64,000 nucleotides of DNA from Dehalococcoidia bacterium (GCA_041390625.1 JAWKPM010000010.1:42514-106513); one strand, 5' to 3'; positions 1,014 to 33,549 are shown, counted from the first letter of the stretch. The notes: generated from the sequence alone by a model not told the origin. Numbers and translations: made by a program.

Positions 1014-1016
1014 AGG

Positions 1017-2196: not shown

Positions 2197-2242
2197 GTGG
2201 CTTCCTCGTACGCCTGTCGAAGCGGTGCTCAGGACGCTCCGG

Positions 2243-2938: not shown

Positions 2939-3169
2939 ATGCGAGTGGCCTTCGAGGTGCTGCTGCCGATCGTGGGCGTCGGGATCGCGGCGCTGGCGGT
3001 GGTGGCGGTGGCGGTGGTGCTGTTCTCGTATCACCCGCTGCTGATCTTCCTGCCGGTGGCGGTCGTGATCGGCGCCCTCATGCTGGTGGCGCGTCGCGAT
3101 CGGCGGCTGCAGGCGGAGGAACGACTGCGGGGCGAAGACGGGCCTCGACCGCCGAGCGCGCCTCGATGA
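2939..3169 (+). CDS. Small membrane protein with two TM helices (hypothetical)
   Basis: ATG at 2939 with strong GC3 bias. Very hydrophobic (VAFEVLLPIVGVGIAALAVVAVAVVLF...) with a charged C-terminus. Lies directly upstream of the radical SAM gene. Confidence 0.4.
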   Translation: MRVAFEVLLPIVGVGIAALAVVAVAVVLFSYHPLLIFLPVAVVIGALMLVARRDRRLQAEERLRGEDGPRPPSAPR

Positions 3170-3233
3170 CGGCTCCGAGCGGGGACGCGAGGCGTAGACT
3201 GGCCTCGATGGACCTTGTGACGACGGGAATTCG

Positions 3234-12203: not shown

Positions 12204-12458
12204 ATGGATCAGCTGATCGAGATCATCCGGCTCGGGCTGCAGATCCTGATCTTCGCGATCTTCGCCCGCTCCATCCTCACGTGGTTCCCGATCGACCGGA
12301 ACGGGCCGGTGTTCCAGGCGTTGGACGCGATCACGGAGCCTATCCTCGACCCGCTGCGCCGGGTCATTCCGCTGGTTGGGATGATCGACATCACCCCGAT
12401 GGTGGCGATCCTACTGCTGCTGTTCATCTCCTCGGCGCTGGGCTCGGGGTCTTTCTAA
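12204..12458 (+). CDS. YggT-family membrane protein
   Basis: 84 aa with 2 TM helices and a YggT-like sequence (ILTWFPI...LDPLRRVIP..G.IDI.P). Confidence 0.8.
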   Translation: MDQLIEIIRLGLQILIFAIFARSILTWFPIDRNGPVFQALDAITEPILDPLRRVIPLVGMIDITPMVAILLLLFISSALGSGSF

Positions 12459-12605
12459 CGCCTCGACGGACCAAGAGCGAGGTCGGCCCTGCGGGCCGGC
12501 GTGCCCGCCCACCCACCCTTCCTGCATCGAGGGGCTCCGCCCATGGAACTCCCCGCGGAGCAGGATCCGTTGCGCCCGCGTCCTCCTGCGACTCCTAGAG
12601 CCGAG

Positions 12606-12875
12606 TCAGTCCCTCGAGAGGCGTGCCGCGAGATCGGCGGGCTCGAGGCCCTCGACCTCGACGAGCTTGGTGCGGGCGGTGGCGCCGCTCACGAGGGTGA
12701 TCGCGCCTCGGGGGACGCGGAGGTGGCGCGCGAGGAGGCGGACCAGGGCCTCGTTGGCGCGTCCGTCGACGGGCGGGGCGGTGACGCGCACGCGGAGGGT
12801 GGCGGTTGCGGCCTCGAAGTCGCCGACCTCGTCTCGGGAGGCGCGCGGGGTGAGGCGGACGGTCAGGCGGGCCAC
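12606..12875 (-). CDS. DUF167 (YggU-like) protein
   Basis: GTG start chosen at 12875. Pattern ..VRVTAPPVDGRANEALVRLLARHLRVPRGAITLVSGATARTKLVEVEG is the DUF167 signature. Convergent with the yggS-proC-yggT genes. Confidence 0.6.
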   Translation of the reverse strand: MARLTVRLTPRASRDEVGDFEAATATLRVRVTAPPVDGRANEALVRLLARHLRVPRGAITLVSGATARTKLVEVEGLEPADLAARLSRD

Positions 12876-13020
12876 GGCGTGCCTCGATGCTCCGCGCCTC
12901 GGTGGCCTCGATGGCCCGCTCTTCGACTCGGTGCGGGCTGTGGATAACCCTGTGGATGGGAACTCACGGCCTCGTGGGTAAGTCGTTCGCAACTCGATGC
13001 TGAGTGATGTTCGCATAGAG

Positions 13021-13053
13021 TCGAACACATGTTTGACACCGAACACCCGTTCG
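13021..13053. promoter_or_regulatory. Two tandem Cheo-type LexA/SOS boxes upstream of recA
   Basis: TCGAACACATGTTTGA at 13021-13036 and CGAACACCCGTTCG at 13040-13053, both CGAAC-N4-GTT(C/T)G. They lie ~90-120 nt upstream of the recA ATG. Confidence 0.6.
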
Positions 13054-13140
13054 CATAGTCTCCGACCTGCCCAGCGCAGGACAGGCCGTACCGCGGCCGC
13101 GCCGGCAGGGATACCCTGAGGCACACAAGGAGAGTGAACC

Positions 13141-17540: not shown

Positions 17541-18371
17541 GTGCGGGTCCTCCTCGCCGGCGACGTGGTGGGACGGCCGGGCCGTGATGCGGTCCGGGCG
17601 ATCCTGCCGGGGCTGCGCGAGGAGCTGGGCCTCGACCTCGTGGTGGTGAACGCGGAGAACGCGGCCGCGGGGCGCGGGCTCACGGTGCGCCTCGCGAACG
17701 AGCTCTTTCAGGCCGGGGTCGACGTGCTGACCTCGGGCAACCACATCTTCAACGTGCGCGAATTCGTGCCCGCCCTCGATGGGCCGCTGCCGATCCTGCG
17801 GCCTGCGAACTATCCCGCGGGAGTGCCGGGGCGCGGCGTCCTCGAGGTGGGCGGAGCGACGCCCGTCACGATCGTGAACCTCATGGGGCGCACCTTCATG
17901 CCGGTCGCCGTCGACGACCCGTTCGCCGCCGTCGACACGATCCTCGAGGGGATCGCACCGGGCTCGGTCGTGCTCGTCGACTTCCACGCGGAGGCGACGA
18001 GCGAGAAGCAGGCGCTCGGCTGGTACCTCGATGGCCGCGTCTCGGTGGTGGTGGGGACGCACACGCACGTGCCGACGGCGGACCAGCGCGTGCTGCCGCA
18101 GGGCACGGCGTACGTCTCCGACCTCGGGATGTGCGGAGCGCTCGACTCGGTGATCGGCGACGACGTGACCTCGGTGATCACGCGGTTCACGACGAGCATG
18201 CCGACGCGGCTGCCGCCGGCCGAGGTGCCGCCCGGCGCCGAGGTGATGATCAACGCGGTGGTCGTCGACATCGACGAGACAACGGGGCGGGCGTGGAGCA
18301 TCGAGCGGGTGGACCGCCGCTGCCGCCTCGATGAGGCGGGCGGGGACCTCGAGGGTGGAGGTGGCGCGTGA
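17541..18371 (+). CDS. YmdB-like metallophosphoesterase (TIGR00282 family)
   Basis: GTG start 1 nt after the rny stop. MRVLLAGDVVGRPGR...NAENAAAGRG...TSGNH...GTHTHV. Confidence 0.85.
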   Translation: MRVLLAGDVVGRPGRDAVRAILPGLREELGLDLVVVNAENAAAGRGLTVRLANELFQAGVDVLTSGNHIFNVREFVPALDGPLPILRPANYPAGVPGRGVLEVGGATPVTIVNLMGRTFMPVAVDDPFAAVDTILEGIAPGSVVLVDFHAEATSEKQALGWYLDGRVSVVVGTHTHVPTADQRVLPQGTAYVSDLGMCGALDSVIGDDVTSVITRFTTSMPTRLPPAEVPPGAEVMINAVVVDIDETTGRAWSIERVDRRCRLDEAGGDLEGGGGA

Positions 18372-19228
18372 GCATCGGCGACTTCCACACGCACTCGACG
18401 CGCTCGGACGGGATGCTGACGCCGACACAGCTGGTGGATCTCGCGGCCTCGAGGGGCGTGCGGGTGATGGCGCTCACGGACCACGACACGCTGGACGGCC
18501 TCGACGAGGCGCGCGCGGCGGCGGCGCGACACCCGGGCTTCCTCCTCGTGCCGGGAGTCGAGCTCTCGGCGGACCTGCCGGGGCGCGAGCTGCACATGCT
18601 GGGGCTATTCGTCGACGAGACGAACGAACGGCTGCTGTCGGACCTCGCGCGGTTCCGCGAGGGGCGCATCGAGCGCGGGCGGAGGACCGTCGAGGCCCTC
18701 GAGGCGGCGGGCGTGCCGGTCGACTGGGCGCGAGTGCAGGAGATCGCCGGTGACGCCTCGGTGGGTCGCCCGCACGTGGCGCGCGCGCTCCTCGAGGCGG
18801 GGCACGTCGAGACGATCAACGAGGCGTTCGACCGCTTCCTCGGGCGCGGGCAGCCGGCCTACTTCGAGCGGGAGACGCTGTCGCCCTCGGAGGCGATCGC
18901 CATGATCCGGGGGGCGGGCGGCCTCGCGCTGTTCGCGCACCCCTCCTTCACGAACGAGTACGAGCAGGTGGCGGCGGACCTGGCGGCCGAGGGGCTGTTC
19001 GGCCTGGAGGCCTACTACAAGAACTACGAGCCCGAGCTCGTCGAGTCGCTGCGGGCCATGGCGGAGCGCCTCGGTCTGTTCGCTCTCGGTGGCTCGGACT
19101 ACCACGGGATGGACCGCTCGGACGAGCGTGAGCCGGGCGACATCCCGCTGCCGGACGAGGTGGTGTGGTCGTTCCTCGAGGCGGCGCGGGCGGCGGGGTG
19201 CCGGGTGCCCGAGCCGACGCCGGCCTGA
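18368..19228 (+). CDS. PHP-domain phosphoesterase (TrpH/YciV-like)
   Basis: GTG start that overlaps the upstream stop. IGDFHTHSTRSDG ... ALTDHDT ... GGSDYHG. Confidence 0.85.
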   Translation: MSIGDFHTHSTRSDGMLTPTQLVDLAASRGVRVMALTDHDTLDGLDEARAAAARHPGFLLVPGVELSADLPGRELHMLGLFVDETNERLLSDLARFREGRIERGRRTVEALEAAGVPVDWARVQEIAGDASVGRPHVARALLEAGHVETINEAFDRFLGRGQPAYFERETLSPSEAIAMIRGAGGLALFAHPSFTNEYEQVAADLAAEGLFGLEAYYKNYEPELVESLRAMAERLGLFALGGSDYHGMDRSDEREPGDIPLPDEVVWSFLEAARAAGCRVPEPTPA

Positions 19229-19259
19229 TCGAGGACCGCACCGGAGATTCGAGGTCGCC

Positions 19260-19793
19260 ATGACGACGAGCGCGCAGCCGGGCCCCGAGCAGGTGGTCTA
19301 CTGCGCACGTCACCCGGACGTGGAGACGGCGCTCACGTGCGGGCGCTGCGGGACGCCGATCTGCCCTCGCTGCATGGTGCACACGCCCGGCGGCATCCGA
19401 TGCCCCGACTGCGCGCAGCTGCGCCGGCCGCCGATGTACGAGCTGTCGGCGAGCGACTACCTCAAGGCCGGCGGCGCCGCACTCGTCGTCGGCATGCTGC
19501 TCGGCCTCGTCGGCGCGGTGATCCTGCCGGCAGGCGCGCGCTTCGGGTTCTTCGGTCTGCTCATCGCGTTCTTCGTCGGGACCGGCGCGGGGGCCGTGGT
19601 CGCGGAGGCGATGCAGCGGGTGACCCGCGCGAAGCGCGGGATGGGGATGCAGGCGCTGGCGACGGCGGGCCTCGGCCTGGCATACGTCGAGCGGCTGGTG
19701 CTGAGCGGCGGGCTGGACCTGGCGCTGCAGGACCTGGTCGGCATCCTGATGGTGGCGGTGGCGGTCGGCGCGGCCTGGAGCCGGCTGCGCTAG
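19260..19793 (+). CDS. Membrane protein with N-terminal zinc-ribbon (4 Cys pairs) and 3-4 TM helices
   Basis: MTTS...YCARHPDVETALTCGRCGTPICPRCMVHTPGGIRCPDC, then a hydrophobic C-terminal half. Confidence 0.6.
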   Translation: MTTSAQPGPEQVVYCARHPDVETALTCGRCGTPICPRCMVHTPGGIRCPDCAQLRRPPMYELSASDYLKAGGAALVVGMLLGLVGAVILPAGARFGFFGLLIAFFVGTGAGAVVAEAMQRVTRAKRGMGMQALATAGLGLAYVERLVLSGGLDLALQDLVGILMVAVAVGAAWSRLR

Positions 19794-19830
19794 GCGTCGA
19801 CGGCTCGACGCGCCTCGATGCTCGCCCTCG

Positions 19831-19923
19831 CTAGCCGCTGAGGCGGTCGACGACGGTGAGGATGGCGAGCAGGCCGAGGCAGGAGCCGCTGACGAGGGCG
19901 ACCCGCTTCATCTCTCGCAACAT
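19831..19923 (-). CDS. Possible small hydrophobic peptide (26-30 aa)
   Basis: MLREMKRVALVSGSCLGLLAILTVVDRLSG. Every codon ends in G/C, which is host-like. Weak RBS. It is the distal end of a long spurious ORF that overlaps the tRNA antisense. Confidence 0.25.
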   Translation of the reverse strand: MLREMKRVALVSGSCLGLLAILTVVDRLSG

Positions 19924-20178
19924 GTAGCGTGATTCGCGGGCGGCAGCGGCGACGGCGCGGTCGTGCGCGCCGTGGCGGCCTCGCGAGGCACCCTCGTCAC
20001 CACCGCCCGAGGCAGGCGCGGGCGCGGAGCCCTGGTAGGTGGGCCTCGGTGGGAGGCGGCGCCTCGATGTGGTGCGTCGACGGGGGTTGCTCGACATGGG
20101 TGCCAGTCTACGTCGGGAAGTCGCGAGGCGCGATGGATTGACCGGGGGTGACGCGGATGCCATGATCTCGGCCTCGGC

Positions 20179-20255
20179 GGCCCCGTAGTGTAGCGGCCTA
20201 ACACGCCACCCTGTCACGGTGGAGATCGTCGGTTCGAATCCGATCGGGGTCGCCA
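20179..20255 (+). tRNA. tRNA-Asp (anticodon GTC), CCA encoded
   Basis: Hand-folded cloverleaf. Acceptor GGCCCCG/CGGGGTC (one G.U pair), D-arm GTGT/ACAC, anticodon stem CCACC/GGTGG with loop CTGTCAC, T-arm GTCGG-TTCGAAT-CCGAT. Ends G-CCA. Confidence 0.9.
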
Positions 20256-20290
20256 TAACCCGCTCGGTAGATTCGGCCGCGAGCGGGTTA
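20256..20290 (+). terminator. 11-bp stem hairpin (TAACCCGCTCG ... CGAGCGGGTTA) immediately 3' of tRNA-Asp
   Basis: Perfect inverted repeat read from the sequence. No T-run. Confidence 0.4.
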
Positions 20291-20512
20291 CGATCGGGCT
20301 GACCCTCCTCGGCCCGTCCGGGTCCGCAAATTCATCGACCGCCATCGACCGCTGACCGCCAAGAGGCACCCCTTCGCGCGGCGGAAGTGTGCCAGATGGG
20401 CGAACCACGTGAGCGTTGCTCCCGGCGAACTGGGAGCTTGCGGGCCGATCACTCCTCGGGCTCCCCCGCGGAAATCGCGACACCGAGGCGCGGTCGATCG
20501 CGACGAACGCCG

Positions 20513-21259
20513 CTAGAGCTCGCGATGCGAAAGGCGAATCCCGGCCACCCAGAGTGCGAGAGAGGCGGCCACCGCTCCGACGATCGCCGACCGCACGTAC
20601 TGAGCCGGAGTCGCGTCCGTGAGTAGTCCGAGCATCGCGTTCGCCAGGCGGCCGGGAAGCCACTCGCCGATTGTCGGGACCAGCCCCAGGAGAGAAACGC
20701 CGGCGATCAGGGCGTAGGTGACAACGACGGTGCCGAGCACACCCCTGGCAATGGATGCAGCGAGCGCGACGAGAGAGATGACGAAGGCGAAGTAGAGCGC
20801 CCCATAGAGGGTGCCAAACAGCATGGCCTCCACCCCCAGCGACCCGATAAGCACGCGGGTTTCGTACCAAGCCGCAGCTGTCCCGAGTGCGAACACCACG
20901 GCGGTGGCCGGCGCCCAGACTGCAAAGCGGGCCAGGACGAGCACTTGCATGGATCTCACGCGCGTTCGCAGGAAAGCAGCGAGCTCACTTTCGCCATCGA
21001 ATGCGAACGCACCCGCCGCTGCCGCGATCGCTGTGAGCAGCCCCAGCTGCATGATATTGCCCAGGTATTGCCGGACGCCGTCGGCCGGCACTGCTGCAGT
21101 GACGGTGAGCTGCACGTTGCTACCCAATCGGCTAACGATGTCGGACAAATAGCGCGCAGTGAACGGGCCGAGCAGCCCAAAGAAGATGAACACGACGAGT
21201 AGCGCCGGACCTCGCCAAGTACGTCGCAAGCGGAGCAATTCCAGTCGCCACAGGCTCAC
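20513..21259 (-). CDS. ABC-2 type transporter permease
   Basis: 248 aa with 6 predicted TM helices. Overlaps the upstream ATPase by 4 nt. Confidence 0.75.
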   Translation of the reverse strand: MSLWRLELLRLRRTWRGPALLVVFIFFGLLGPFTARYLSDIVSRLGSNVQLTVTAAVPADGVRQYLGNIMQLGLLTAIAAAAGAFAFDGESELAAFLRTRVRSMQVLVLARFAVWAPATAVVFALGTAAAWYETRVLIGSLGVEAMLFGTLYGALYFAFVISLVALAASIARGVLGTVVVTYALIAGVSLLGLVPTIGEWLPGRLANAMLGLLTDATPAQYVRSAIVGAVAASLALWVAGIRLSHREL

Positions 21260-22128
21260 GTTGTGATCTCCAAGAACACCTCCTCCAGCGACGCCTCACC
21301 CGGGCGGAAACTGACCACACGCGCGTTCGCTCGCGCCAGGGCGGCCGGCAACCCACATTCGGCATCTTCGAGCCGACTAACCGCGACCCGAATCGCACCT
21401 CCCCGGCTGATGTCGACGGAACGCACCCACGGCACGTCTCGGAGAACCTGGGCGACTTGATCGGGGCGATCACGTAACCGCACTAAGTAGTGCGGCGCGG
21501 CCGACCCCGTCAGCAGCTGAGCGAGCGGTCCTTGGTACAAGAGTCGCCCGTTCCGAAGGATCCCGACCGTGTCGCACACCTCCTGCACGTCTGAGAGGAT
21601 GTGGCTGGAGAACACAACTGTCCGGCTGCCCCGCTCGCGAGCGATAAGGTCGAGGACCTCGCGACGCCCCATCGGGTCGAGAGCTGCGGCGGGCTCGTCG
21701 AGCAGGAGCAGCTCCGGGTCTGCCACGAGTGCGGCGGCCAGCCCGAGTCGCTGGAGCATGCCCCGTGAGAAGCCCCCAACCCGACGGTCGAGCGCGTCAG
21801 TGAGCCCAGCCTCGTCGAGCGTTTGCTCGACACGCTCCGGCGGGGGCGTGCCCAATACAAGCGAGTAGGCGAGCGCCACAACCTCGCGGGCTGTGAGCCA
21901 CGGCTCGAACTGCGGGGTGTCAGGCGCGAGGACCACGCGCTCCCGCGGTACGTTGATGCTGCATTCGCCCTCGGTGGGGCGACGAAGACCAGCGAGTATG
22001 GAAAGCAGGGTCGTCTTCCCCGAGCCGTTTGGGCCCACAAGGCCGTAGACGCTGCCGTGTGTGACCTCCATGTCGACACCATCGAGCGCGGCGTGTGCCC
22101 CATATTGCTTTCGTAGTCCCCGCGTCAT
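21256..22128 (-). CDS. ABC transporter ATP-binding protein
   Basis: Internal ATG at 22128. Walker A GPNGSGKTT, signature FSRGMLQRLG, Walker B LLLLDEP. Confidence 0.85.
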   Translation of the reverse strand: MTRGLRKQYGAHAALDGVDMEVTHGSVYGLVGPNGSGKTTLLSILAGLRRPTEGECSINVPRERVVLAPDTPQFEPWLTAREVVALAYSLVLGTPPPERVEQTLDEAGLTDALDRRVGGFSRGMLQRLGLAAALVADPELLLLDEPAAALDPMGRREVLDLIARERGSRTVVFSSHILSDVQEVCDTVGILRNGRLLYQGPLAQLLTGSAAPHYLVRLRDRPDQVAQVLRDVPWVRSVDISRGGAIRVAVSRLEDAECGLPAALARANARVVSFRPGEASLEEVFLEITT

Positions 22129-22133
22129 CACCG

Positions 22134-22322
22134 TCACGCGTGCTGCCTCCCTGCCACGAGGTAGGCAATGCCACCAACCGGTGCCGAAACGAGCAAGATC
22201 ACCAGGGCCCATGCCCACTTCGGGAGATACCGTGCGCCTGAACGCGCTAGCTCATACAGGCAGTACGCATCGAATGCGATGGCAACGATGACGATTGGGA
22301 TCAGGGCCGCGAGCGGCGGCAT
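22134..22322 (-). CDS. PLDc_N-family small membrane protein (PLD-nuclease N-terminal domain), first gene of the ABC-2 operon
   Basis: 62 aa from an ATG 6 nt after AGGAG. PIVIVAIAFDAYCLYELAR...YLPKWAWALVILL...GIAYLVAGR is typical of the PLDc_N domain. Confidence 0.7.
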   Translation of the reverse strand: MPPLAALIPIVIVAIAFDAYCLYELARSGARYLPKWAWALVILLVSAPVGGIAYLVAGRQHA

Positions 22323-22573
22323 GTACAACTCCTGTTCATGTGCAGATGTCAGTCGGGAGGATAGATTCGTATTCCTACGATGATCTGAGAGCAGACTGGA
22401 TCTCACACTCAGGATGGGAGTCTTGGTGGCTCACACCTGCAGCCCGTTTTCACCCGTCCGACTCACGGGATTCAGGTTCCTCTCAGGGTCTAGATCTGAT
22501 GATGGCCGCACGCGACATCGATCCCGGGGGGCGGCCAAGCCATGTTCGCTCCTCTGATTCAGAGGAGGTGAGC

Positions 22574-23302
22574 GTGCGCATCGCGCCATTGATCCATCGC
22601 ATCGGCACGAACAGCATCGTGAACGCCTACCTGCTTGAAGAGGCCGGCGAGGTCACGATCATCGATGCCGGTGTGCCCGGCTACTACGGGGACATCCCCC
22701 GAGAGCTTGCAGCGATGGGGCGGTCGGTCGCGGATGTCCGCGCACTGTTGCTGACGCACGGCCACAGCGATCACATCGGATTCGCCGAGCGGCTGCGTCG
22801 GCAGGACGGCGTACCGGTCTCGGTTCACGAGATCGACGCCTCGCTGGCTCGAGGCGAGGTGCCAAACCCTTCGAAGGGAATGGGCCCGACCAAGTTGGGA
22901 CCGCTCCTCGGCTTCCTGTGGTTCACCATGCTTCACGGTGGATTTCGGACCCCGCAGCTTCGTGAGGTGTCCACGTTCGGGGACGGCGCCACGCTGGACG
23001 TTCCCGGCAGCCCGCGGGTCATCCTGGTTCCGGGGCACACGCCGGGCAGCTCCGCGCTCCACGTTCCGACCCACGACGCACTCTTCGTCGGTGACGCCCT
23101 CGCGACCTACGCGGTGACCACCGGCAAGCGCGGCCCGCAAGTCGCGCCGTTCACAGCCGACGAAGAGACAGCCCTTGCGTCGCTCGGACGCCTCAGGCAC
23201 CTCGACGCCGACCTCGTTCTGCCCGGCCACGGAGATGCGTGGACCGGTGGCGCGGCGGCGGCCGTGGATCAGGTGCGCCAGGAGGTGACGGCCGTCGCCT
23301 GA
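22574..23302 (+). CDS. MBL-fold metallo-hydrolase
   Basis: GTG 5 nt after GAGGAGG. LLTHGHSDHIG (HxHxDH) and later VPGHTPGS. Confidence 0.8.
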   Translation: MRIAPLIHRIGTNSIVNAYLLEEAGEVTIIDAGVPGYYGDIPRELAAMGRSVADVRALLLTHGHSDHIGFAERLRRQDGVPVSVHEIDASLARGEVPNPSKGMGPTKLGPLLGFLWFTMLHGGFRTPQLREVSTFGDGATLDVPGSPRVILVPGHTPGSSALHVPTHDALFVGDALATYAVTTGKRGPQVAPFTADEETALASLGRLRHLDADLVLPGHGDAWTGGAAAAVDQVRQEVTAVA

Positions 23303-23365
23303 GCGACGCGGCGCGGCGCCGCGCGGCGTCGGAAGGCTCTGCCCCCCGAGGAAGGGAGTTCGGCG

Positions 23366-24178
23366 GTGACGACGCTCTTCCCTTGGCTACGAGTGCTGCT
23401 GGCTGTGGCGATCTACGTCGTATTCGCGCTGCTCGCCTCTATCGGCATCAGGCGGGTCGGAGCCGACTTGAAGGACATGCAGGGACGCACCTCGATGGTT
23501 GTGCTGGCGATCGGCGCGCTGGCGAACGTGGCGGTGCTCGCCACGGTGTTGCTGATGCTGGTGCTGCTCGACGGGCGGAGCCTCTCGTCGCTCGGACTCG
23601 ACGTCACGGCACGCGATGCGCTGGTGACAGCGTTCGCGATTGGCGCCATCGCGACGCTGTCAGCCGCGTTCCTGTCGGTGGTCGCACGGAGGACGCAGCA
23701 TCGCGTCCGACTTCTGCGCATCACTCCGTCGGCCACGGCCATGCTCGGAGCGGTGATGATGCTCGGGGTGCTGTTCGTCGTTGCCCTGCAGGAGGAGGTG
23801 GTCTACCGCGGCTACGTGGCCGTGAATCTTCTCGATGAGGGCTGGCTGGTGGTGGCGCTCGCGTCGATCGTCAGCTTCACGGCCATCCACCTGCTGACCA
23901 ATCGCACCAGCCCGGCCCAGGTCGCCAGCTGGCTGCTGGGCGCTTCGGTACTCGTCTGCGCCTACCTCGTCAGTGGCTCGATCTGGGTCGCCGTGACGCT
24001 GCACTTTGCGACGGACGTGACGAACGTGGTCGCGCTAGGAATCGCCGGCCAGTACTCGCTCGTCGAGATCGCGCCTCCGCTCAGCGACCGTGACCGTGTG
24101 ATGTACCGAGGCGCTTTCGCGGTGTCCCTGATCGCGATCCTCATCGGGGCCTTTGGAACGAACGTGAGGATCGGTTAG
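23366..24178 (+). CDS. CPBP-family (CAAX/Abi) intramembrane metalloprotease
   Basis: GTG after GAAGGGAG. Motifs EEVVYRG (EExxxR), FTAIHL and HFATD (second His motif). Multi-TM. Confidence 0.75.
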   Translation: MTTLFPWLRVLLAVAIYVVFALLASIGIRRVGADLKDMQGRTSMVVLAIGALANVAVLATVLLMLVLLDGRSLSSLGLDVTARDALVTAFAIGAIATLSAAFLSVVARRTQHRVRLLRITPSATAMLGAVMMLGVLFVVALQEEVVYRGYVAVNLLDEGWLVVALASIVSFTAIHLLTNRTSPAQVASWLLGASVLVCAYLVSGSIWVAVTLHFATDVTNVVALGIAGQYSLVEIAPPLSDRDRVMYRGAFAVSLIAILIGAFGTNVRIG

Positions 24179-24203
24179 GCACTACAAGTCAAAGGAGGCC
24201 TTG

Positions 24204-24893
24204 ATGGCCAGCCACTCCGCCACAACGACTCGTCGGTCGGTTACCGAGCGTGGGAGGATGTCGATCGAACCGTTCCTGACGTCGATCCCTTTCATCGTTG
24301 CCGGCATCCTCTTCGTCCTCTATCCAGCCGTCAGACCGTTCTCCGACGAGCAAACGATGGACGGCGCGCGAACGTTCGCCTCGGACCGCTGGGTCGTGGC
24401 GCACTCGTTCGCCCTCGCGGGGTTCATCCTGCTCGGGCTTGGACTGCTCGGACTGCGTGACCTCTTGCGCGGATCCGTCAGCGAACGCTGGGCGCAGTGG
24501 GGGCTCGTGGTCGGCTGGTTCGGGGTGGGCCTGACCCTTCCGTACTACGGCGCCGAGGTGTTCGGACTGCACGCGGTGGGCCGTGAGGTGATCGCCCGCA
24601 ACGACGTTGGCCTGATGTCGTTGGTGGACTCGATCCGCTGGGGCGCAGGGATCTGGTTCATCCTGCTGGGGCTCGTCGCGATTGCCGTCGCCGCCCTGCT
24701 GTTTGCCGTCGCGCTCTGGCGAGCGGCCAGTTACGGGCGTTGGGGCGGCGTCGTGCTCGCCACGGCGTTCGCGCTCTACATCCCTCAGTTCGCAGCATCG
24801 CACCCCGTGAGGGTGTTGCACGGGCTGCTCGTCTTCGCCGGCTGCTGGCTCATCGCGCGCGGCGTACTGCGGCAGGCGAGCGGGATGGCGTAG
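24204..24893 (+). CDS. Membrane protein (hypothetical, ~6 TM)
   Basis: ATG 5 nt after AAGGAGG. Hydrophobic throughout. Confidence 0.6.
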   Translation: MASHSATTTRRSVTERGRMSIEPFLTSIPFIVAGILFVLYPAVRPFSDEQTMDGARTFASDRWVVAHSFALAGFILLGLGLLGLRDLLRGSVSERWAQWGLVVGWFGVGLTLPYYGAEVFGLHAVGREVIARNDVGLMSLVDSIRWGAGIWFILLGLVAIAVAALLFAVALWRAASYGRWGGVVLATAFALYIPQFAASHPVRVLHGLLVFAGCWLIARGVLRQASGMA

Positions 24894-25007
24894 CGCTTGC
24901 CCGGCCGCGGTGGGCGTCCCGCCCGATCGGGGTCGCCAGCCCGTCTCGCCTCGACGCTTCACCTACCTCGATGCCGCGCCAGGCGAGCACCGACAGCACG
25001 CAGCGAG

Positions 25008-25283
25008 CTAGTCGGCTTGGCGTCGCTGCCACTCTTCGAGCGTCTTCGCCACCTTCGGGTGCGTGCTGCGGTCAGTTCCGGGCGGTGGCAGCCCGAGATC
25101 CTCACGGAGTACTTCGAGAAGCGCATCACACCACTCGGTCCATGTTCCCGGGTCGGAAGGTACACGCTCGCCCGCCTCCTCCATCGAATCGAGGATTTGC
25201 TCAGTGGTTAGATGGCGCGCCTGATACTGACTCAGGATTTTCAGCATCGCGCGGTAGGCCTGCCAGTCATCGACCATCACCAT
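25008..25283 (-). CDS. Hypothetical acidic protein (91 aa) with atypical low-GC3 codon usage
   Basis: ORF with AAA/AGT/TAT/CTA/CAA codons, unlike the rest of the window. No recognisable motif. Confidence 0.4.
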   Translation of the reverse strand: MVMVDDWQAYRAMLKILSQYQARHLTTEQILDSMEEAGERVPSDPGTWTEWCDALLEVLREDLGLPPPGTDRSTHPKVAKTLEEWQRRQAD

Positions 25284-25637
25284 GCGCTCACCTCAGGGTC
25301 GAAGCCTCTTGCGAACTGGGTCCCACTGAAACAGGACCTCGTTCACACCACCGTTCGTGATGAGAGCGCCAGTTGGACTGTGCCAAATCTCTGCCCAACT
25401 CTGGTCGCCGCCGCACCTCGTAGGTGAGCATAAACATCGACGACCCAGTCCGTGGGCGCGCGGGCAGCGCCCACGACTCGTAGCCCCAAGCGGCGATAAC
25501 GTCGGCGTTCTCGTCGATCCGGTCGCTTCTCGAGCCGAGGCCGTCGTAGGAGACGTACGCCGGGTCATCGGAGCCGTCGATGGCCGCGACGAGGTCGAGG
25601 CCGTCGGGCGCGCTTCCTCGTGCGTCGCGCCCGGCGG

Positions 25638-26707
25638 CTACACGAGGTGGCAGGCGACGCGGTGGCCGGGGGCCTTCTCCTCGAGGACGGGGACCTCTTC
25701 TCGACAGCGGTCGGTCGCGAGGGGGCAGCGCGTGTTGAAGCGGCAGCCGGGGGGCGGGTTCTCGGGGCTGGGGAGGTCGCCTTCGAGGAGGAAGGACTCG
25801 CGCTTCGCCTCGAGCTTCGGGTCGGGCACGGGGATCGCGCTGAGCAGCGCTCGCGTGTATGGGTGCTGCGGGTTCGCGAAGAGGTCGTCGGCGGGGGCCT
25901 CCTCCATGATCAACCCGAGGTACATGACGGCGACACGGTCGGAGATGAAGCGCACGGTCGACATGTCGTGGGAGATGAAGACGTAGGCGAGTCCGAGCTT
26001 CGACTGGAGGTCTCGCAGCAGGTTCACGACCTGCGCGCGCACTGAGACATCGAGGGCACTCGTCGGCTCGTCGGCGACGACGAGGTCGGGGCCGACCGCG
26101 AGGGCGCGCGCGATGCCGACACGCTGGCGCTGGCCGCCGGAGAACTGGCCGGGGTATCGATCGGCGGTCGTGGGGTCGAGGCCGACCTGGTCCATCAGCT
26201 CCTCGACGCGGGCGCGACGCTCCTCTCGACTGCCGATGCGCTGCACGGTGAGGGGCTCGGCGATGCTGGCACCGATCGACATCTTCGGGTCGAGCGAGGC
26301 CATGGGGTCCTGGAAGATCATCTGGACGCGCCGGCGGTAGGCCTTGATGTCGGCCTGCTTGCGGACGGCGGTGATGCCGAGGCTGCTGAGGTAGTCCACG
26401 CCATCGAGGAGGATGCGCCCCTCGGTGGGGGAGTCGAGCTGGACGAGCATGCGGCCCGTCGTGGTCTTGCCGCAGCCGGACTCGCCGACGAGGCCGAGCG
26501 TCTCGCCTCGCTTCAGGGTGAGGTCGACGCCATCGACGGCGCGCACGCGCTTCGTGGGACCGCCGAACCATGACCGCCCGGAGATGAAGTGCTTCTTGAG
26601 GCCCTTCACCTCGAGCAGCGGCGTGTTGCCGCCGGCGGCGGGGATGCGCCCGGCCTCGCGGCTGGGGGGCGGCAGGAAGTCGGTCGCGGTCGTCCTGGGT
26701 GCGGTGG

Positions 26708-26711
<4 letters not shown>
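25638..26711 (-). CDS. Oligopeptide/dipeptide ABC transporter ATP-binding protein (DppF/OppF-like)
   Basis: GTG start (VTTAPR..) in a GTGA overlap with the upstream ATPase stop. Walker [10 protein letters not shown], signature [10 protein letters not shown], and the C-terminal oligopeptide-ABC extension (CRFNTRCP). Confidence 0.9.
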
Positions 26712-27778
<1,067 letters not shown>

Positions 27779-27816: not shown

Positions 27817-28707
27817 CTACTTGCGGAGCGACGGGTCGAGCTGCTCGCGGATGCCGTCGGAGAACAGGTGGAGGCTGATCGCCACGACGACGATGGCGAG
27901 GCCCGGGATAGTCGAGATCCACCACGCCTCGCGCAGGTAGTTGCGCCCGTCCGCGACGAGGTTGCCGAGCGACGGCTCGGGCGGCGTGATGCCGAGCCCG
28001 AGGAACGACAGCGCGGCCTCGGCGAGGATGGCATTCGCGGCGTAGATGGTCGCGACGACGACCATCGGAGCCACGGTGTTCGGGAGGACGTGCCTCAACA
28101 GGAGCCACCACGTCGGGGCGTTGCCCATGCGGGCGGCGTCCATGAACGTCCTCGAGCGCATGCCCAGCGCGAGCGAGCGCTGCAGACGGATGGCCGCCGG
28201 CATCGAGGAGATGCCGAGGGCGATGATCAGCTGCGTCGTGCCGCCGCCGAAGACGGCGATGATCCCGATCGCCAGCAGCAGACCGGGAAACGCCAGGAGT
28301 ACGTCGACGAAAGCCGAGATGATGGTGTCGACGCGGCGGCCCATCGTGCCGGCCATGGTGCCGAGGAGGATGCCCATCGACATCGACAGCGTGGCGGCGG
28401 CGAAGCCGATGGTGAGCGACACCTTCAGCCCGGCGATCGTCCTCGAGAAGATGTCGCGCCCGAGCTTGTCGGTGCCGAAGAAGTGCGAGAACGAGGGACC
28501 GGTCAGCGAGTCGGCCACGTTCGGCTTCAACGGGTCCGCAATCGGCAGGATCGGCGCCGTCACCGCGAGCAGCAGGATCGGCAGCAGGATGGCGGCGCCG
28601 AGCGCGTTGTTGCGGTTGCGGAAGAACGACGCGAACGAGCTCTCACGGAGCCAGCCGGACGCCCTCGATGACGGCTGCGTCCTCGCCGTCGAAATGGTCG
28701 TTTGCAT
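27817..28707 (-). CDS. Peptide ABC transporter permease (DppC/OppC-like)
   Basis: 296 aa. BPD-transporter EAA-like loop ([18 protein letters not shown]...). Confidence 0.85.
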
Positions 28708-28734
28708 CGAGCCTGCCTTCCTCGAGAGGTGGAA

Positions 28735-29685
28735 CTACGAGAGCCGCACTCGCGGGTCGACGCGGGTGTAGACGAGATCGGTCACGACGTTCACGACGAC
28801 GAAGATGACCGCGTAACTGAGGATCAGTCCCTGCACGACCGGGTAGTCGCGGCTGTAGATGCTGTTGATGAGCTGCGTGCCCATGCCGGGCAGCGAGAAG
28901 ATCGACTCGGTGATGACGGTGCCGGAGAAGAGCCGCCCGACGCTGAGGCCGGTGATGGTGATGATCGGCAGTGCGGCGTTGGGGAGGGCGTGGCGGAACA
29001 GGATGGACCGCTCGGAGGCGCCCAGCGAGCGCGCCGTGCGGATGTAGTCCTCCTCGAGGGTCTGGAGGACCGAGGTCCTCGTGACGCGCGCCACGGAGGC
29101 GATCTGCGCCGTGCCGAGCACGATGACGGGGAGCGCCAGGCGCTTTGCCATGTAGATGGGGTCACCCCAGTCGATGGGCCCGCTGATCGGGAACCAGCCG
29201 AGCTGCAGCGACAGGAAAAGCATCAGGAGCAGCGAGACCCAGAACGAGGGCAGCGTGTCGATGACCATGGCGAAGACGGTGAGGCCGGAGTCGGCCGCGT
29301 CGTTGCCTCGGTACTTCGCGTAAGCGGCGACGGCGCCCAGCGGCACCGAGATCAGCGTGCCGACGATGATCGCGAGGATGGCGACGATGGCGGTTACCGG
29401 CATCGCGTTCGCGATCACCGTGGTGATCGGCAGGTTCGTGTGGATCGAGTGACCGAGGTCGAAGCGGAAGAGGTCCGTGACGTAGTGCACGTACTGGAGG
29501 AGGAGCGGCTCGTTGAGGCCGAGTCGCTCGCGCAGGCCTTCCAGTGCCTCGGCGCTCATGCCTTCGCCACCGATGTACGCGGCCGGGTCCCCCGGGATCA
29601 TGCGCAGCATCAGGAAGACGAGCGTCACGACACCGGCGATGGCCGGGGCCACGGAGGTCGTACGTCGAATCGCGTAGTTGAGCAT
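28735..29685 (-). CDS. Peptide ABC transporter permease (DppB/OppB-like)
   Basis: MLNYAIRR... N-terminus typical of DppB. ATG at 29685 after AAAGGTG. Confidence 0.85.
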   Translation of the reverse strand: MLNYAIRRTTSVAPAIAGVVTLVFLMLRMIPGDPAAYIGGEGMSAEALEGLRERLGLNEPLLLQYVHYVTDLFRFDLGHSIHTNLPITTVIANAMPVTAIVAILAIIVGTLISVPLGAVAAYAKYRGNDAADSGLTVFAMVIDTLPSFWVSLLLMLFLSLQLGWFPISGPIDWGDPIYMAKRLALPVIVLGTAQIASVARVTRTSVLQTLEEDYIRTARSLGASERSILFRHALPNAALPIITITGLSVGRLFSGTVITESIFSLPGMGTQLINSIYSRDYPVVQGLILSYAVIFVVVNVVTDLVYTRVDPRVRLS

Positions 29686-29699
29686 CGAGGCACCTTTCA

Positions 29700-29736
29700 C
29701 GGGGCCCCTTGCGGGGCCCCGCTTCGGCGGCGGGCT
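29700..29736. promoter_or_regulatory. Two palindromic hairpins between the SBP and permease genes (GGGGCCCC-gcaa-GGGGCCCC; GGCGGGCTC-tag-GAGCCCGCC)
   Basis: Read directly from the sequence. Classic position for an intra-operon attenuator that sets SBP:permease stoichiometry. Confidence 0.35.
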
Positions 29737-31395
29737 CTAGGAGCCCGCCCCGACGTACACCGGGTAGAAGTCGACGTTGGCGAGTCGGTTCACCTGGATG
29801 TTCTTGATCGGTCCCCACGCGGCCCAGAGGTTCGTCGAGGCGCGCGTCGCCATGTAGGCCACGTCGTCGTAGACGAGCTGCTGAGCCTCGTAGTACTTGG
29901 CCAGGCGCTCCTCCGGGTCGAGTGAGGCGCGAGCCTCCTCGAGGAGTCGCGTGACGTCCGGGTTGTCGTACTTCGAGCCGTTGAGGCCGGCCGGGGCCGC
30001 GTTGTCCGGGTGGAGGAACCCGAAGAGCAGCGTGTCCGGGTTGACTGCCGGGTAGAGGCGCCCGGCGAGCTCGAAGTCGCCGGCGTTCCGGCGCTGGTTG
30101 AAGACGGCGGGCTCCACGACGTCGAACTGGAGGTCGATGCCCACCTCGGCGAGCATGGCCTGCTCGAGCAGCGCCGCGTCGTTCACGCCGGTGACGAGCG
30201 AGTGGACCGTGAAGCCATCGGGGTAGCCGGCACCGGCGAGCAGCTCCTTCGCCTGCTCCGGGTCGTAGCCGTACGGCGTGAGATCCGGGTTGTAGACCGG
30301 CATCCACGGCGGCAGGATCGACGACCACGGGCGGGCCGTGCGCGGCGTCAGCTGCTCGACGATCGACGTGTAGTCGATCGCGAGGGCGTAGGCGAGGCGC
30401 ACGTCGCGGCTCTGGAACGGCTCGAAGTCGGCGCCGAACATCGTGACGGAGGTCGCGTAGTCCTCGGACTTCGCGATCTGGACGCCCTCGGTGGCGGCGA
30501 CGCGGTCAATCAGTTCGGTGTTGCCCTGGCCGAGGTTCGACATGACGTCGACCTCGCCGTTGAGGAATGCGGTCTCCGCGGCAGAGACATCGCGGATCAG
30601 CACCCACGTGATCTTGTCGAGGGTCGGACGGCCTCGGAAGTAGCCCTCGTGAGCGAGGAGCACCATCTCGGAGTCCGGCGTCCACGAGTCGATGTAGAAC
30701 GGGCCGGTGCCGACCGGGTTGCGACCGTAGTCGTCGCCGAAGTCCTCGACGGCCTTCTGATTGACGATCTGGCCCTGGTGGTAGTTGCCGACCTGGTAGA
30801 GGAAGTTGCCGTCGGGCTGCTTCAGCTTGATGACCACGGTGTAGTCATCGGTGGCCGTGACAGAGTCGACGTTGTTGAACTCGGCGCGGTACGGGGAGCC
30901 CGTGGCCTCGTCCATGACGCGGTTGTAGGAGTACACGACGTCGGCGGAGGTGAAGGCACCGTAGCCGTGCTGCCACTGGGCGTTGTCGACCAGGTGGAAG
31001 GTGTACTCGAGGCCGTCGTCCGAGATGTCCCACGACTTCGCGAGGTCCGGCATCGGTGCGCCGGTCACCGGGTCGAAGGTGGTGAGACCGCTGTAGATGT
31101 TGAAGGCGATGTTCTCCGTCTCGATGCGGAAGAGGAACGCCGGGTCGAGCGTGCCGGGCTCGAAGTACTGGCGAACCGTGATCTCCTGCACATCGGCGAG
31201 ATCGGCGTCGCCGGCGGCGACCAGCGTGGCGGCGGCGGTCGGCGACTCGGACGCGCCGGCCTCGGGTGTCGAGGTCGACTCTTCCTCGTCGCTGCCGCCA
31301 CAGGCGATGACGAGCGTGGCCACGAACGCGAGTGTCGCGAACGCGAACACTCGAGGTAATCGAGGTAGGCGCAGCGGAATTCGCTGTGCATTCAT
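29737..31395 (-). CDS. Peptide/nickel ABC transporter substrate-binding lipoprotein (SBP family 5)
   Basis: 552 aa with lipobox LVIACGGS. Family-5 SBP length and pattern. Confidence 0.85.
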   Translation of the reverse strand: MNAQRIPLRLPRLPRVFAFATLAFVATLVIACGGSDEEESTSTPEAGASESPTAAATLVAAGDADLADVQEITVRQYFEPGTLDPAFLFRIETENIAFNIYSGLTTFDPVTGAPMPDLAKSWDISDDGLEYTFHLVDNAQWQHGYGAFTSADVVYSYNRVMDEATGSPYRAEFNNVDSVTATDDYTVVIKLKQPDGNFLYQVGNYHQGQIVNQKAVEDFGDDYGRNPVGTGPFYIDSWTPDSEMVLLAHEGYFRGRPTLDKITWVLIRDVSAAETAFLNGEVDVMSNLGQGNTELIDRVAATEGVQIAKSEDYATSVTMFGADFEPFQSRDVRLAYALAIDYTSIVEQLTPRTARPWSSILPPWMPVYNPDLTPYGYDPEQAKELLAGAGYPDGFTVHSLVTGVNDAALLEQAMLAEVGIDLQFDVVEPAVFNQRRNAGDFELAGRLYPAVNPDTLLFGFLHPDNAAPAGLNGSKYDNPDVTRLLEEARASLDPEERLAKYYEAQQLVYDDVAYMATRASTNLWAAWGPIKNIQVNRLANVDFYPVYVGAGS

Positions 31396-31435
31396 ACGGG
31401 CAGTCCCCCTCCGGGTACTTCGCTCGGAACGATGA

Positions 31436-32200
31436 CTAGACGGCGACGAGCTGCTTCACGCCGTTCTTGACGCCGATGGAGTCGAAGTAAGCCTTCGCTT
31501 CCTCGAGGAAGACGACGTCGGCGTACTTCGCGTGCATGTCGAAGAGATTGATGTAGTGCGAGGCCTGGGTGCGGTCGAACGTGCACTCCTCGACGACGCC
31601 CATGCGGAAGCGGAACGTCGCGCCGTCCACGACCGAGGCTCGGACGCACCCGCTGGTGGTCTCGCCACAGGCGATGACGGTGTCGACGCCGAGGTGATTC
31701 AACTGGAACACCAGCGGCGTACCCTGGAAGGCGCTGGCGGCGGCCTTCTCGAGGACGAGGTCACCGGGCTGCGGCGCCACTTCCTCGACGATGACCATCG
31801 ACATGCGCGCCTCTTCCTCGGTGAGGTTCGACGTGCGGTCGCCGCGCGGCTTGCCCTGGCCCTTGCGGGAGCCCCAGTGGCCCATCTGCGTCAGCGGGTT
31901 GAACGAGTCGAAGCCGTGGACGTAGATGATCGGGATCTCGTTCGCGCGGGCCGAGGCGATGAGCTCGACGGTCTTGTCGATGGCTTCCCAGCCCTCGAGG
32001 CCGGTCGAGCCGGGCCACTTCTTGATGGACTCGAAGAGGTCCTCGCGCTCGAGGCCGAGGACGCTGTAGTAGTCGTCGATGACGAGGAGCGCGGGCTTCT
32101 CGCCGAACCCGGAACGGTCATCCCCCTTCTTGCCGAACCCGGACGCGACGATGTGCTGTCGATCGCGCTCGGTCATGTACGATTCCCAGCTTCGAGGCAC
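31436..32200 (-). CDS. Isochorismatase-family cysteine hydrolase
   Basis: ALLVIDDYY (Asp of the triad) and VIACGETTSGCVRASVVDG (catalytic Cys motif). Confidence 0.75.
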   Translation of the reverse strand: MPRSWESYMTERDRQHIVASGFGKKGDDRSGFGEKPALLVIDDYYSVLGLEREDLFESIKKWPGSTGLEGWEAIDKTVELIASARANEIPIIYVHGFDSFNPLTQMGHWGSRKGQGKPRGDRTSNLTEEEARMSMVIVEEVAPQPGDLVLEKAAASAFQGTPLVFQLNHLGVDTVIACGETTSGCVRASVVDGATFRFRMGVVEECTFDRTQASHYINLFDMHAKYADVVFLEEAKAYFDSIGVKNGVKQLVAV

Positions 32201-32634
32201 TTGGAACTCCTTCCCACCACCTGTGTGGAGGTCATGTTCCGTGCGAAGCGTTTCGGTGCTGAGAACCGTCAGTTACGACTCGGTGAATGACTGATAACTC
32301 GCGCGTCTCTCCTCGTTCTCTTGTTCTTGTCGATGTCGTTTCGTCGATGTCACGGACGTTCGTCCCTTCAGTCATCGAAACGATGCTGAAGTGCGTCTGC
32401 GATACGTCGGGCGTCATACAACGTGCTTCGAACGTAGTTCCTTGAGACATCGGAGTAGCGCCGCCGAAGTGTGCGCGCAGCGTCGTTGCAGTCTCTTTGC
32501 AGTCGGCCCGTCATTCGCTCTTCATCCGGCTGTCACCGCCTCGACCTCTGGAGGCAACGCTTCGGGGGGAGTGTGTGCTGGCCAACGCTGACCCCATGGA
32601 GAAGCCATGGAGCGCCCATCAAGGAGGCCATCGA

Positions 32635-33549
32635 ATGACAGCGATGTTGAGCACGATGTACGCGACGGACCGGTTCGACACCTCGAAGGTTCGCTTCATC
32701 GACGTCGACGGGATCCAGACGCGCGTGTACGAGGACGGCAGCGGCCCGACGCTGGTGCTGTTCTCCGGCGGGCAGATCGGATCGCTCTACTCCATCGACT
32801 CGTACAGCCTCAACCTCGAGGCACTCGCGCAGGACCTCCACGTCGTCGCGATCGACAAGATCGGGCAGGGGGCGACGGCGGCGCCCGAGGCGGACGCTGA
32901 CCTCACCTGGGAAGCGACCGTGCAGCACGCGCGGCGCACCATCGAGGTGATGGGCCTCGAGGGGGTGCACCTCGCGGGGCACTCACGCGGCGGGATGCTG
33001 ATCTCGGCGCTGTCGTATGAGCTGGGCGACCTCGTGAAGTCGCTCGTGATCATCGACTCGGGGACGCTCGCCCCGACCGAGCCCGGGCCGAACTTCTACG
33101 GCGAGCTGCCGACGTTCGACCAGGGCACGATGGAGGCCGCGCGCATCGAGCCGGACACGCAGGCGTTCAAGGCCGAGCAGGTCACGGACGACTTCATCGC
33201 GCGGATGCTGGAGCTCTCCCAGGACCCGGCATTCCAGCGCATTCAGGCGCGCATGGAGAGCGGCGGCGCGGAGACGTTCCTCGCAAGCCTCGACGCGGCG
33301 CACGACGCGATCCTCGAGCGGATCGCCGCGGAGGGGCTGCCGGTGCCGACGCTGATGCTGTGGGACTACAACGACAAGTCGGCGCCCGTGACCTCGGGGT
33401 ACAAGCTGGTCGACATCATCTCGCCGAAGACGCCGTTCTTTGAGTTCCACGTCTTCAACCAGGGCGGGCATTACACGTTCCGCGAGAACCCGGAGTCCTT
33501 CAACCGCGTCGTGCGGTCATGGATCCTCGATGTGGAGGCGCGCCCCTAG
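32635..33549 (+). CDS. Alpha/beta-fold hydrolase
   Basis: ATG at 32635, 7 nt after AAGGAGG. Nucleophile elbow GHSRGG. Confidence 0.75.
   Translation: MTAMLSTMYATDRFDTSKVRFIDVDGIQTRVYEDGSGPTLVLFSGGQIGSLYSIDSYSLNLEALAQDLHVVAIDKIGQGATAAPEADADLTWEATVQHARRTIEVMGLEGVHLAGHSRGGMLISALSYELGDLVKSLVIIDSGTLAPTEPGPNFYGELPTFDQGTMEAARIEPDTQAFKAEQVTDDFIARMLELSQDPAFQRIQARMESGGAETFLASLDAAHDAILERIAAEGLPVPTLMLWDYNDKSAPVTSGYKLVDIISPKTPFFEFHVFNQGGHYTFRENPESFNRVVRSWILDVEARP

Follow-up and report, generated by a model that had tools for sequence, protein, structure and literature searches.

Is the DNA that directly follows a tRNA-Asp gene in an uncultured member of the Chloroflexota native to its genome and, if it came from elsewhere, did it come as one island with one function? 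The question is raised by positions 20,179 to 25,637 of a 64,000-nt stretch (GCA_041390625.1, JAWKPM010000010.1:42514-106513; hereafter the window) of an NCBI metagenome-assembled genome (MAG) labelled 'Dehalococcoidia bacterium', in which the genes concerned carry the locus tags R3C39_11630 to 11660. An earlier note on this DNA had proposed a horizontally acquired island of low GC content beside the tRNA gene, ending near 25400 and with exporter- or immunity-like content. In our view the region is probably an old, integrase-less mosaic islet, accreted from three sub-blocks (termed here A, B, and C) at a variable site past tRNA-Asp. The horizontal part of the proposal is supported by third-codon-position GC content (GC3), the native composition of the same gene families elsewhere, a direct repeat of the tRNA end, and the absence of the block from six relatives. 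The idea of one clean island is not, because the block falls into three compositional sub-blocks, the repeat lies inside the anomalous stretch, and the hairpin and some 110-140 nt next to the tRNA are ancestral.

Third-position GC and the probable foreign character of the block

By eye, the coding sequence downstream of the tRNA had been put at 60-65% GC, against more than 70% elsewhere. A dip in GC is real but smaller, with a bulk value of 0.658 for 20256-25400 compared with 0.697 for the rest of the window, and it is not distinctive, since a 5.2-kb window over the native opp region (28.3-33.5 kb) is equally low at 0.658. Windows of this size starting at 28.0-28.8 kb range from 0.658 to 0.660, and the native opp genes and their neighbors (28000-33500) have a GC3 of 0.92-0.93; the low GC of the opp region lies at codon positions 1 and 2.

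It is third-position GC, not bulk GC, that separates the block from native DNA. The 52 genes of at least 100 aa lying outside the block within the window have a mean GC3 of 0.899 (standard deviation 0.036, minimum 0.804), and the genes of the block differ from them (Table 1; Mann-Whitney P = 1.9e-5). Five of the block open reading frames (ORFs) lie below all 52 outside genes, and six have values of 0.71-0.81, compared with the outside minimum of 0.804. The earlier observation is partly confirmed, GC3 setting the block apart and bulk GC not. The anomalous stretch runs from about 20397 to 25637 (~5.2 kb), beyond the end first given to it, and its composition is heterogeneous.

The same gene families can be found with unremarkable composition in other genomes. 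The orthologs of the sub-block A genes in a locus here called L108 have a GC3 of 0.95-0.96 among neighbors at 0.94-0.98, and the gene pair characteristic of sub-block B matches the GC3 of its own neighbors in three further loci (L081, L082, and L104). Since these modules are compositionally native elsewhere, low GC3 is not a property of the families. The closest homologs of the sub-block B pair, those of L081, belong to a genome with a GC3 of ~0.8, resembling sub-block B itself. The normal GC3 of the families elsewhere and the L081 value together point to import of the block from donors of lower GC3.

Outside the block, the lowest GC3 values in the window (0.80-0.84) belong to genes flanking a second tRNA gene, tRNA-Val (1791-1872), within positions 80-3313. 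These encode a DUF6544 fragment, a histidine phosphatase, and a PNPOx-like protein.

A direct repeat of the tRNA-Asp 3' end

The tRNA-Asp gene ends in 16 nt, CCGATCGGGGTCGCCA, that recur once within the anomalous stretch as an exact copy in direct orientation, 30 nt past the stop codon of the polytopic membrane-protein gene and between sub-blocks B and C. A repeat of the tRNA end had been anticipated near 25.3-25.6 kb; it exists, at a different place. It begins exactly at the border of T-loop and T-stem and ends at the last base of the tRNA, covering (as read by eye from the sequence) the 3' strand of the T-stem, the 3' strand of the acceptor stem, the discriminator base, and CCA.

Chance is a poor explanation for this match. 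Among 3000 dinucleotide-preserving shuffles of the 10 kb downstream of the tRNA, the frequency of a match reaching 16 nt or more anywhere in the tRNA was 7e-4, the analytic expectation for the 16-mer itself is 1.6e-5 per 10 kb, and the longest match to the tRNA elsewhere in the window is 11 nt. Gapped alignment stretches the similarity slightly into the start of the hairpin that follows the tRNA, with a score of 33 compared with a maximum of 26 in 484 real-sequence controls. A 25-mer of the tRNA end, with up to three mismatches allowed, matches only the tRNA itself, and a second copy of the repeat is absent from every relative compared. The 3' 23-mer of tRNA-Asp, searched for in IMG/VR as the mark of an attP-bearing element, has no match there. 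In the islands at ssrA, the tmRNA gene, a 3'-end segment of the RNA gene is likewise duplicated by island integration (PMC3146451). The distal copy in the window may accordingly be regarded as a candidate attachment-site (attR) scar, left by a past site-specific integration at the tRNA.

A variable site in relatives

The genome has no close comparator, YmdB being just 71-73% identical to its nearest species-level relatives in GTDB. Upstream of the islet lies a housekeeping row encoding RecA, a GYD protein, RNase Y, YmdB, and a PHP phosphoesterase. The part of this row from RNase Y through YmdB and PHP to tRNA-Asp is syntenic, with the same spacing, in six relatives (L001, L002, L003, L083, L085, and L086), and a further one, L016, keeps the same upstream row and tRNA-Asp offset on a contig that ends 286 nt past the tRNA. 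Downstream of tRNA-Asp the genes differ in each of the six. L001 has an iron-siderophore-type ABC system at this place, L002 a methyltransferase and a STAND ATPase, L003 an F420H2 quinone reductase and EutA, L085 a protein of unknown nature and an acyl-CoA dehydrogenase, and L083 a transposase. The genes of the block and the opp operon of the window are absent downstream of tRNA-Asp in all six (65-84% nucleotide identity), which is what the earlier note's proposal of an island would lead one to expect, distant as these relatives are.

The closest of them, L083 (84% nucleotide identity; PHP 93% identical in amino acids), is represented by a 3.8-kb contig ending 1.4 kb past the tRNA; the others are at 65-75% nucleotide identity. 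Blastn shows L083 to be collinear with the window over 17861-20366, and a global alignment carries the collinearity to about 20395; after that the two are unrelated, so that divergence starts 110-140 nt past the tRNA. Both the tRNA-Asp gene and the adjoining hairpin, which the earlier note had described correctly, were recovered with ARAGORN, Rfam, and folding; in the Rfam scan of 19.7-26 kb the tRNA was the sole match. The hairpin (20256-20290) has an 11-bp stem and a folding energy of -21.4 kcal/mol, and it is ancestral, being conserved in alignment across the window, L083, L085, and L086. It is maintained even in L085 and L086, whose tRNA-Asp itself has diverged. Its position and persistence suggest a terminator or processing structure under selection.

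The transposase of L083 is of the IS1380 type and is encoded some 540 nt past the tRNA-Asp gene of that relative, indicating that the site takes up mobile DNA in that lineage too. In L085, the first ORF after tRNA-Asp (11851-13110, plus strand; 419 aa, no Pfam match) has a GC3 of 0.73, whereas most of the larger ORFs beyond it are at 0.86-0.89; this ORF, too, may be foreign DNA inserted here.

Table 1. Features of the tRNA-Asp locus and of the corresponding site in L083. Positions are those of the window unless a contig is named.
Feature	Position	Strand	Supporting match or remark	GC3 (or GC)
tRNA-Asp (GTC), anchor of the variable region	20179-20255	+	ARAGORN; Rfam RF00005, 62.9 bits	
Left copy of the 16-nt direct repeat	20240-20255	+	last 16 nt of tRNA-Asp	
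Ancestral spacer	20256-20397	+	hairpin 20256-20290 and ~110-140 nt collinear with L083	
Permease-like membrane protein (sub-block A)	20513-21259	-	248 aa; NCBI form 226 aa, R3C39_11630	0.76
ABC transporter ATPase, DrrA-like type (A)	21256-22131	-	ABC_tran, 97 bits	0.76
PLDc_N micro-protein heading the ABC operon (A)	22134-22322	-	PF13396, 30 bits (cut-off 23); 62 aa, two predicted transmembrane helices	0.71
Divergent intergenic region, presumably promoter-bearing	22323-22573		lowest-GC part of the block	GC 0.56-0.57
MBL-fold metallo-hydrolase (sub-block B)	22574-23302	+	Lactamase_B, 110 bits; intact HxHxDH	0.81
CPBP/Rce1-like intramembrane protease (B)	23366-24178	+	PF02517, 45 bits; EExxxR, FxxxH, and HxxxD motifs	0.85
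Polytopic membrane protein (B)	24204-24893	+	~229 aa; NCBI form 211 aa from 24258, R3C39_11655	0.87
Right copy of the 16-nt repeat, candidate attR scar	24923-24938	+	exact match; between B and C	
91-aa soluble helical protein, candidate orphan immunity gene (sub-block C)	25008-25283	-	R3C39_11660	0.71 (GC 0.61)
Truncated Rhs/YD-repeat core fragment (C)	25288-25632	-	phmmer, tblastn, BLASTP; similarity 25393-25602	0.74
OppF-like ATPase, last gene of the native opp operon, right-hand boundary	25638-26780	-	ABC_tran and oligo_HPY	0.92
IS1380-type DDE transposase downstream of tRNA-Asp	L083, 2894-3730	-	DDE_Tnp_1_4, 138 bits	

Sub-block A: a PLDc_N-headed ABC operon

The first block gene past tRNA-Asp ends at 20513, placing the block directly 3' of the tRNA gene. 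Three genes on the minus strand (20513-22322) make up sub-block A, an operon whose members overlap or nearly abut; the permease gene, at its GTG start, shares 4 nt with the end of the ATPase gene. The operon has been kept as a unit in L108 (5935-7747), where the PLDc_N gene also heads the operon and where the amino acid identities are 73% for PLDc_N, 76% for the ATPase, and 63% for the permease.

The catalytic motifs of the ATPase are intact in translation. Its resemblance to the DrrA type stays below the family cut-offs, with 22.1 bits to DrrA1-3_C (cut-off 27.4) and 168 bits to TIGR01188 drrA (cut-off 312). The permease-like protein has no Pfam or NCBIfam match, ABC2_membrane included, and it has 295 homologs, many of which are named 'ABC-2 type transport system permease' by JGI. 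Most likely, to judge from these similarities, sub-block A would form an ATP-driven exporter of the ABC-2/DrrAB type, and the PLDc_N micro-protein could be an accessory or regulatory membrane subunit of it. A comparable arrangement is presumably that of yxlE-yxlF-yxlG in the sigY operon of Bacillus subtilis, in which the gene for a PLDc_N-type protein of ~60 aa immediately precedes those for an ABC ATPase and an ABC-2 permease; the locus in the window differs from that operon in having neither an extracytoplasmic function (ECF) sigma factor nor a YxlC/D-like gene. A search of the literature on PLDc_N proteins with ABC transporters, or on yxlE, gave nothing usable. The possibility that the opp operon travels with the permease, which was prompted by a locus designated L110, was dropped, as the arrangement there differs and identity is merely 36-39%.

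The intergenic region that separates sub-block A from the divergently transcribed sub-block B had been put at about 50% GC and is richer than that (Table 1). Neither a sigma-70-like site nor an Rfam match was found in it.

Sub-block B: a membrane-protein/MBL pair and a protease

The MBL gene probably starts with the GTG at 22574, which is preceded by a GAGGAGG site. Its product is 64-70% identical to MBLs that are paired with the family of the polytopic membrane protein in L081, L082, L104, and L106, the closest being the L081 pair (MBL 70%, membrane protein 68%). The membrane-protein family has more than 1000 homologs, has no Pfam match, and is unnamed; about 37 of its positions are invariant, including a TLPxYGAE motif. 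The AlphaFold model is a helical bundle with a predicted local distance difference test score (pLDDT) of 95.9, for which the PDB offers generic helical-bundle matches and no specific relative. In four of six contexts examined, the membrane-protein gene is followed by the orthologous MBL gene with a 4-nt overlap; a fifth is cut off within a gene that also matches MBL (the pair loci being L081, L082, L104, L106, and L107), and the sixth, L105, has no MBL gene. The order is membrane protein then MBL elsewhere but is reversed in the window, with the CPBP gene in between. As the CPBP gene is not part of the pairs found elsewhere, it may be a local addition to a widely conserved pair.

The intact motifs of the ATPase, the MBL, and the CPBP protein mark these as working genes rather than debris, and sub-block B would most likely encode a membrane-anchored hydrolase acting on a small molecule or an envelope-associated substrate. 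Homologs of sub-blocks A and B are present 240 kb apart in one 1.87-Mb contig; being separate there, they show the block to be a composite. A homolog of the membrane protein with 45% identity is also encoded at 651-1235 of L112 (IMGVR_UViG_2926398486_000003), on a 47-kb contig and close to its end; the contig is listed as viral in IMG/VR, and this homolog may lie in the flank of a prophage.

Sub-block C: a truncated Rhs gene and a candidate immunity gene

From 25638 downstream, the minus strand carries an operon for an opp-type peptide ABC importer. Directly after the stop codon of its OppF gene comes the ORF 25288-25632, with Rhs-like similarity starting within a few nucleotides of that stop. 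With phmmer it has 18 matches among 1.84 billion representatives, its residues 11-72 matching Rhs-core proteins (the best with E = 1.3e-11 and 61-64% identity over these residues), and tblastn and BLASTP give 61% identity over 64 aa to residues 50-112 of one such protein, P0246. All six homologs tested contain TIGR03696 (Rhs_assc_core; 74-82 bits, cut-off 32.5); one ends in a Colicin_E5 nuclease toxin domain, one has RHS_repeat, and P0246 has TEN_YD-shell. The ORF in the window covers just the last YD repeats and the first ~22 residues of the Rhs-associated core and then diverges. It has no match to TIGR03696 or a toxin domain even at E values up to 1 and reaches no family model, it lacks the DPxGRF motif, no further Rhs similarity appears in any frame, and there is no full-length rhs gene in the window. 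What is left is an Rhs stump, lacking both ends.

On the same strand, 4 nt past this ORF, the 91-aa gene begins. Its codons AAA, AGT, TAT, CTA, and CAA were already singled out as unusual in the earlier note, and indeed none of them exceeds a frequency of 1.7 per 1000 codons elsewhere in the window. That note had correctly recognized PLDc_N, ABC ATPase, MBL, and CPBP proteins, all of which have Pfam matches, but had taken the 91-aa product for a membrane protein, whereas it is soluble and helical. It has only two homologs among 5.8 billion proteins, matches no Pfam, NCBIfam, PADLOC, or known immunity family, and yields a poor structure model (pLDDT 60). Weak matches to IS66 (E = 0.009) and Rap1_C were treated as noise. 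Because the gene occupies the immunity position behind an Rhs stump, it can be put forward, tentatively and at slightly less than even confidence, as an orphan immunity gene, its position being the argument. Sub-block C would in that case be a toxin-deleted 'orphan' module that could still protect against the toxin of a relative. It may be read through from the opp operon, as no terminator was detected; a scan for promoters and terminators gave nothing exceeding shuffle expectation.

Like orphan Rhs/YD toxin-immunity modules, the locus has a 3'-end fragment of an rhs core and, immediately behind it in the same orientation, a small gene of low GC content that is lineage-restricted. It differs from them in that the fragment stops about 22 residues into the core domain, with neither DPxGRF nor a toxin domain. 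The putative toxin/immunity remnant in the block is thus this Rhs core fragment with the 91-aa gene, neither of which had been recognized as such.

How the block may have formed

The explanation we favor is that the DNA between about 20397 and 25637 was derived horizontally and built up just past tRNA-Asp and its ancestral terminator hairpin. The 16-nt copy between sub-blocks B and C would be the scar of a past integration, and accretion and decay would have followed, as has been proposed for cis-mobilizable elements (CIMEs) and for the tandem ssrA islands of Dehalococcoides. Both this order of events and the attachment-site nature of the repeat we infer from the composition, the repeat, and the comparisons set out above.

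Several observations weigh against this explanation. Matches to Pfam and NCBIfam revealed no integrase, excisionase, transposase, or transfer gene in the block; all block ORFs of at least 85 aa were assigned for the recombinase check, so the earlier statement that no integrase is present is correct. Compared with plasmids, the block DNA shows just generic ABC and MBL segments at 65-76% identity, and compared with phages nothing. The CPBP and polytopic membrane-protein genes (GC3 0.85-0.87) sit in the low tail of the native genes. Campbell-type integration would place island DNA right after the tRNA and the native flank after attR; what is observed instead is a hairpin and ~110-140 nt after the tRNA that are shared with L083, L085, and L086, and past the right copy only a degenerate 10-nt echo of the hairpin, with no intact hairpin after 24938. 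This ancestral flank does not fit a simple recent integration into the tRNA end. There is one distal repeat only, with none near the right-hand edge at 25.3-25.7 kb. Finally, the comparators are all distant, so that loss of downstream synteny is expected anyway and is by itself weak evidence.

The first alternative, which we consider unlikely, is that the region is native, a vertically inherited and fast-evolving accessory region in which weak expression or relaxed selection accounts for the low GC3, the repeat arose by chance, and the lost synteny is ordinary divergence. The distance of the relatives (65-84% nucleotide identity), at which downstream rearrangement would be expected, agrees with such a history, as do the permease homologs in other Dehalococcoidia MAGs (P0128), the two sub-block B genes that fall inside the native GC3 range, and the lack of a mobility gene. 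It leaves unexplained, however, why five ORFs fall below all 52 other genes in GC3 when the same families are normal elsewhere, it has to accept a repeat with a probability of ~7e-4 or lower, and it does not account for a truncated Rhs gene abutting the opp stop codon, which is the product of a rearrangement and not a conserved native gene.

Less probable again is a single clean cis-mobilizable island, in which 20256-24922 entered in one recombination at the tRNA end and later lost its integrase, both 16-nt repeats remaining functional as attL and attR and usable by a trans-acting integrase. An exact repeat anchored on the tRNA terminus, enclosing six intact genes and no integrase, does fit the definition of a CIME (PMC5704250). 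Yet the ancestral sequence beside the tRNA leaves attL without island DNA next to it, the two operons enclosed by the repeats have unlike GC3 values (0.71-0.76 vs 0.81-0.87), modules A and B are unlinked elsewhere, and the T-loop, the usual crossover segment, lies outside the repeat. Moreover, the right repeat sits inside the anomalous stretch and not at its end (25637), foreign-looking DNA continuing beyond it.

It is very improbable that the block is a functional self-protection island in which an ABC-2 exporter and a CPBP/Abi protease give bacteriocin immunity, as the earlier note had it. In its favor, certain Abi/CPBP proteins of Firmicutes have a role in bacteriocin immunity, the CPBP protein here has intact catalytic motifs, and among NCBIfam models the lantibiotic-protection ABC subunit TIGR03740 comes second for the ATPase. 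That match, however, reaches 156 bits, far under the cut-off of 309.75, no bacteriocin precursor, modification, biosynthesis, or dedicated export gene is present in 20256-25637, PADLOC finds generic ATPase similarity alone in the block, and the CPBP gene stands outside both modules conserved elsewhere. Those modules, the PLDc_N-ABC-permease trio and the membrane-protein/MBL pair, are each found in other genomes on their own, as ordinary parts of the chromosome.

Relation to known elements at stable-RNA genes

The accreted islet has its nearest parallel in the ssrA islands of Dehalococcoides (McMurdie et al., 2011), which carry the 3' end of ssrA as a direct repeat of 20 bp and which, where they lie in tandem and lack integration genes, were read as cis-mobilizable or as fixed remnants (PMC3146451). 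In both cases DNA of low GC content breaks the synteny downstream of a small stable-RNA gene, the 3' end of that gene is repeated (16 nt here), tandem islands without integration genes are included, and the host belongs, in the broad sense, to the class Dehalococcoidia. Unlike the ssrA islands, the islet has tRNA-Asp as its target, lacks the DsiB serine-recombinase module and rdhA cargo, has one distal repeat, measures ~5 kb rather than tens of kb, and retains an ancestral flank on the side of the RNA gene.

CIMEs keep their att sites without integration or transfer genes and can accrete in tandem at tRNA genes (Guédon et al., 2017; PMC5704250). The islet resembles them in lacking integration and transfer genes, in its att-like repeats of a tRNA 3' end, and in the accretion of decayed elements proposed for it. 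It departs from them in that its left site is the tRNA end followed by native sequence, its att sites are putative, and no partner integrative and conjugative element (ICE) or integrative and mobilizable element (IME) is known.

Implications

The islet is an ordinary kind of genome variation and not a new system, and the result is mainly one of annotation. Its limits are refined to ~20397-25637, and a speculative label of bacteriocin immunity is replaced by three concrete modules. The result also shows that bulk GC misleads in this genome of 69% GC, where it is GC3 that tells foreign from native DNA. The membrane-protein/MBL pair and the PLDc_N-ABC trio are widespread modules.

A more ambitious joint reading, conceivable but unlikely, would have the 91-aa protein found an Rhs/YD immunity family in the Chloroflexota, kept as an orphan after deletion of its toxin, and would have the repeat mark a family of tRNA-Asp-specific integrative elements, in Dehalococcoidia other than Dehalococcoides, that still moves integrase-less cargo in cis. 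Separately, that reading would see in the membrane-protein/MBL pair a possible uncharacterized membrane-coupled hydrolase system.

At a more modest level, the Rhs stump and its orphan gene hint at contact-dependent or secreted toxin competition among these uncultured bacteria. If the repeat is a true att scar, tRNA-Asp would be a further integration hotspot, beside ssrA, in the Dehalococcoidia, nearly all knowledge of which comes from MAGs.

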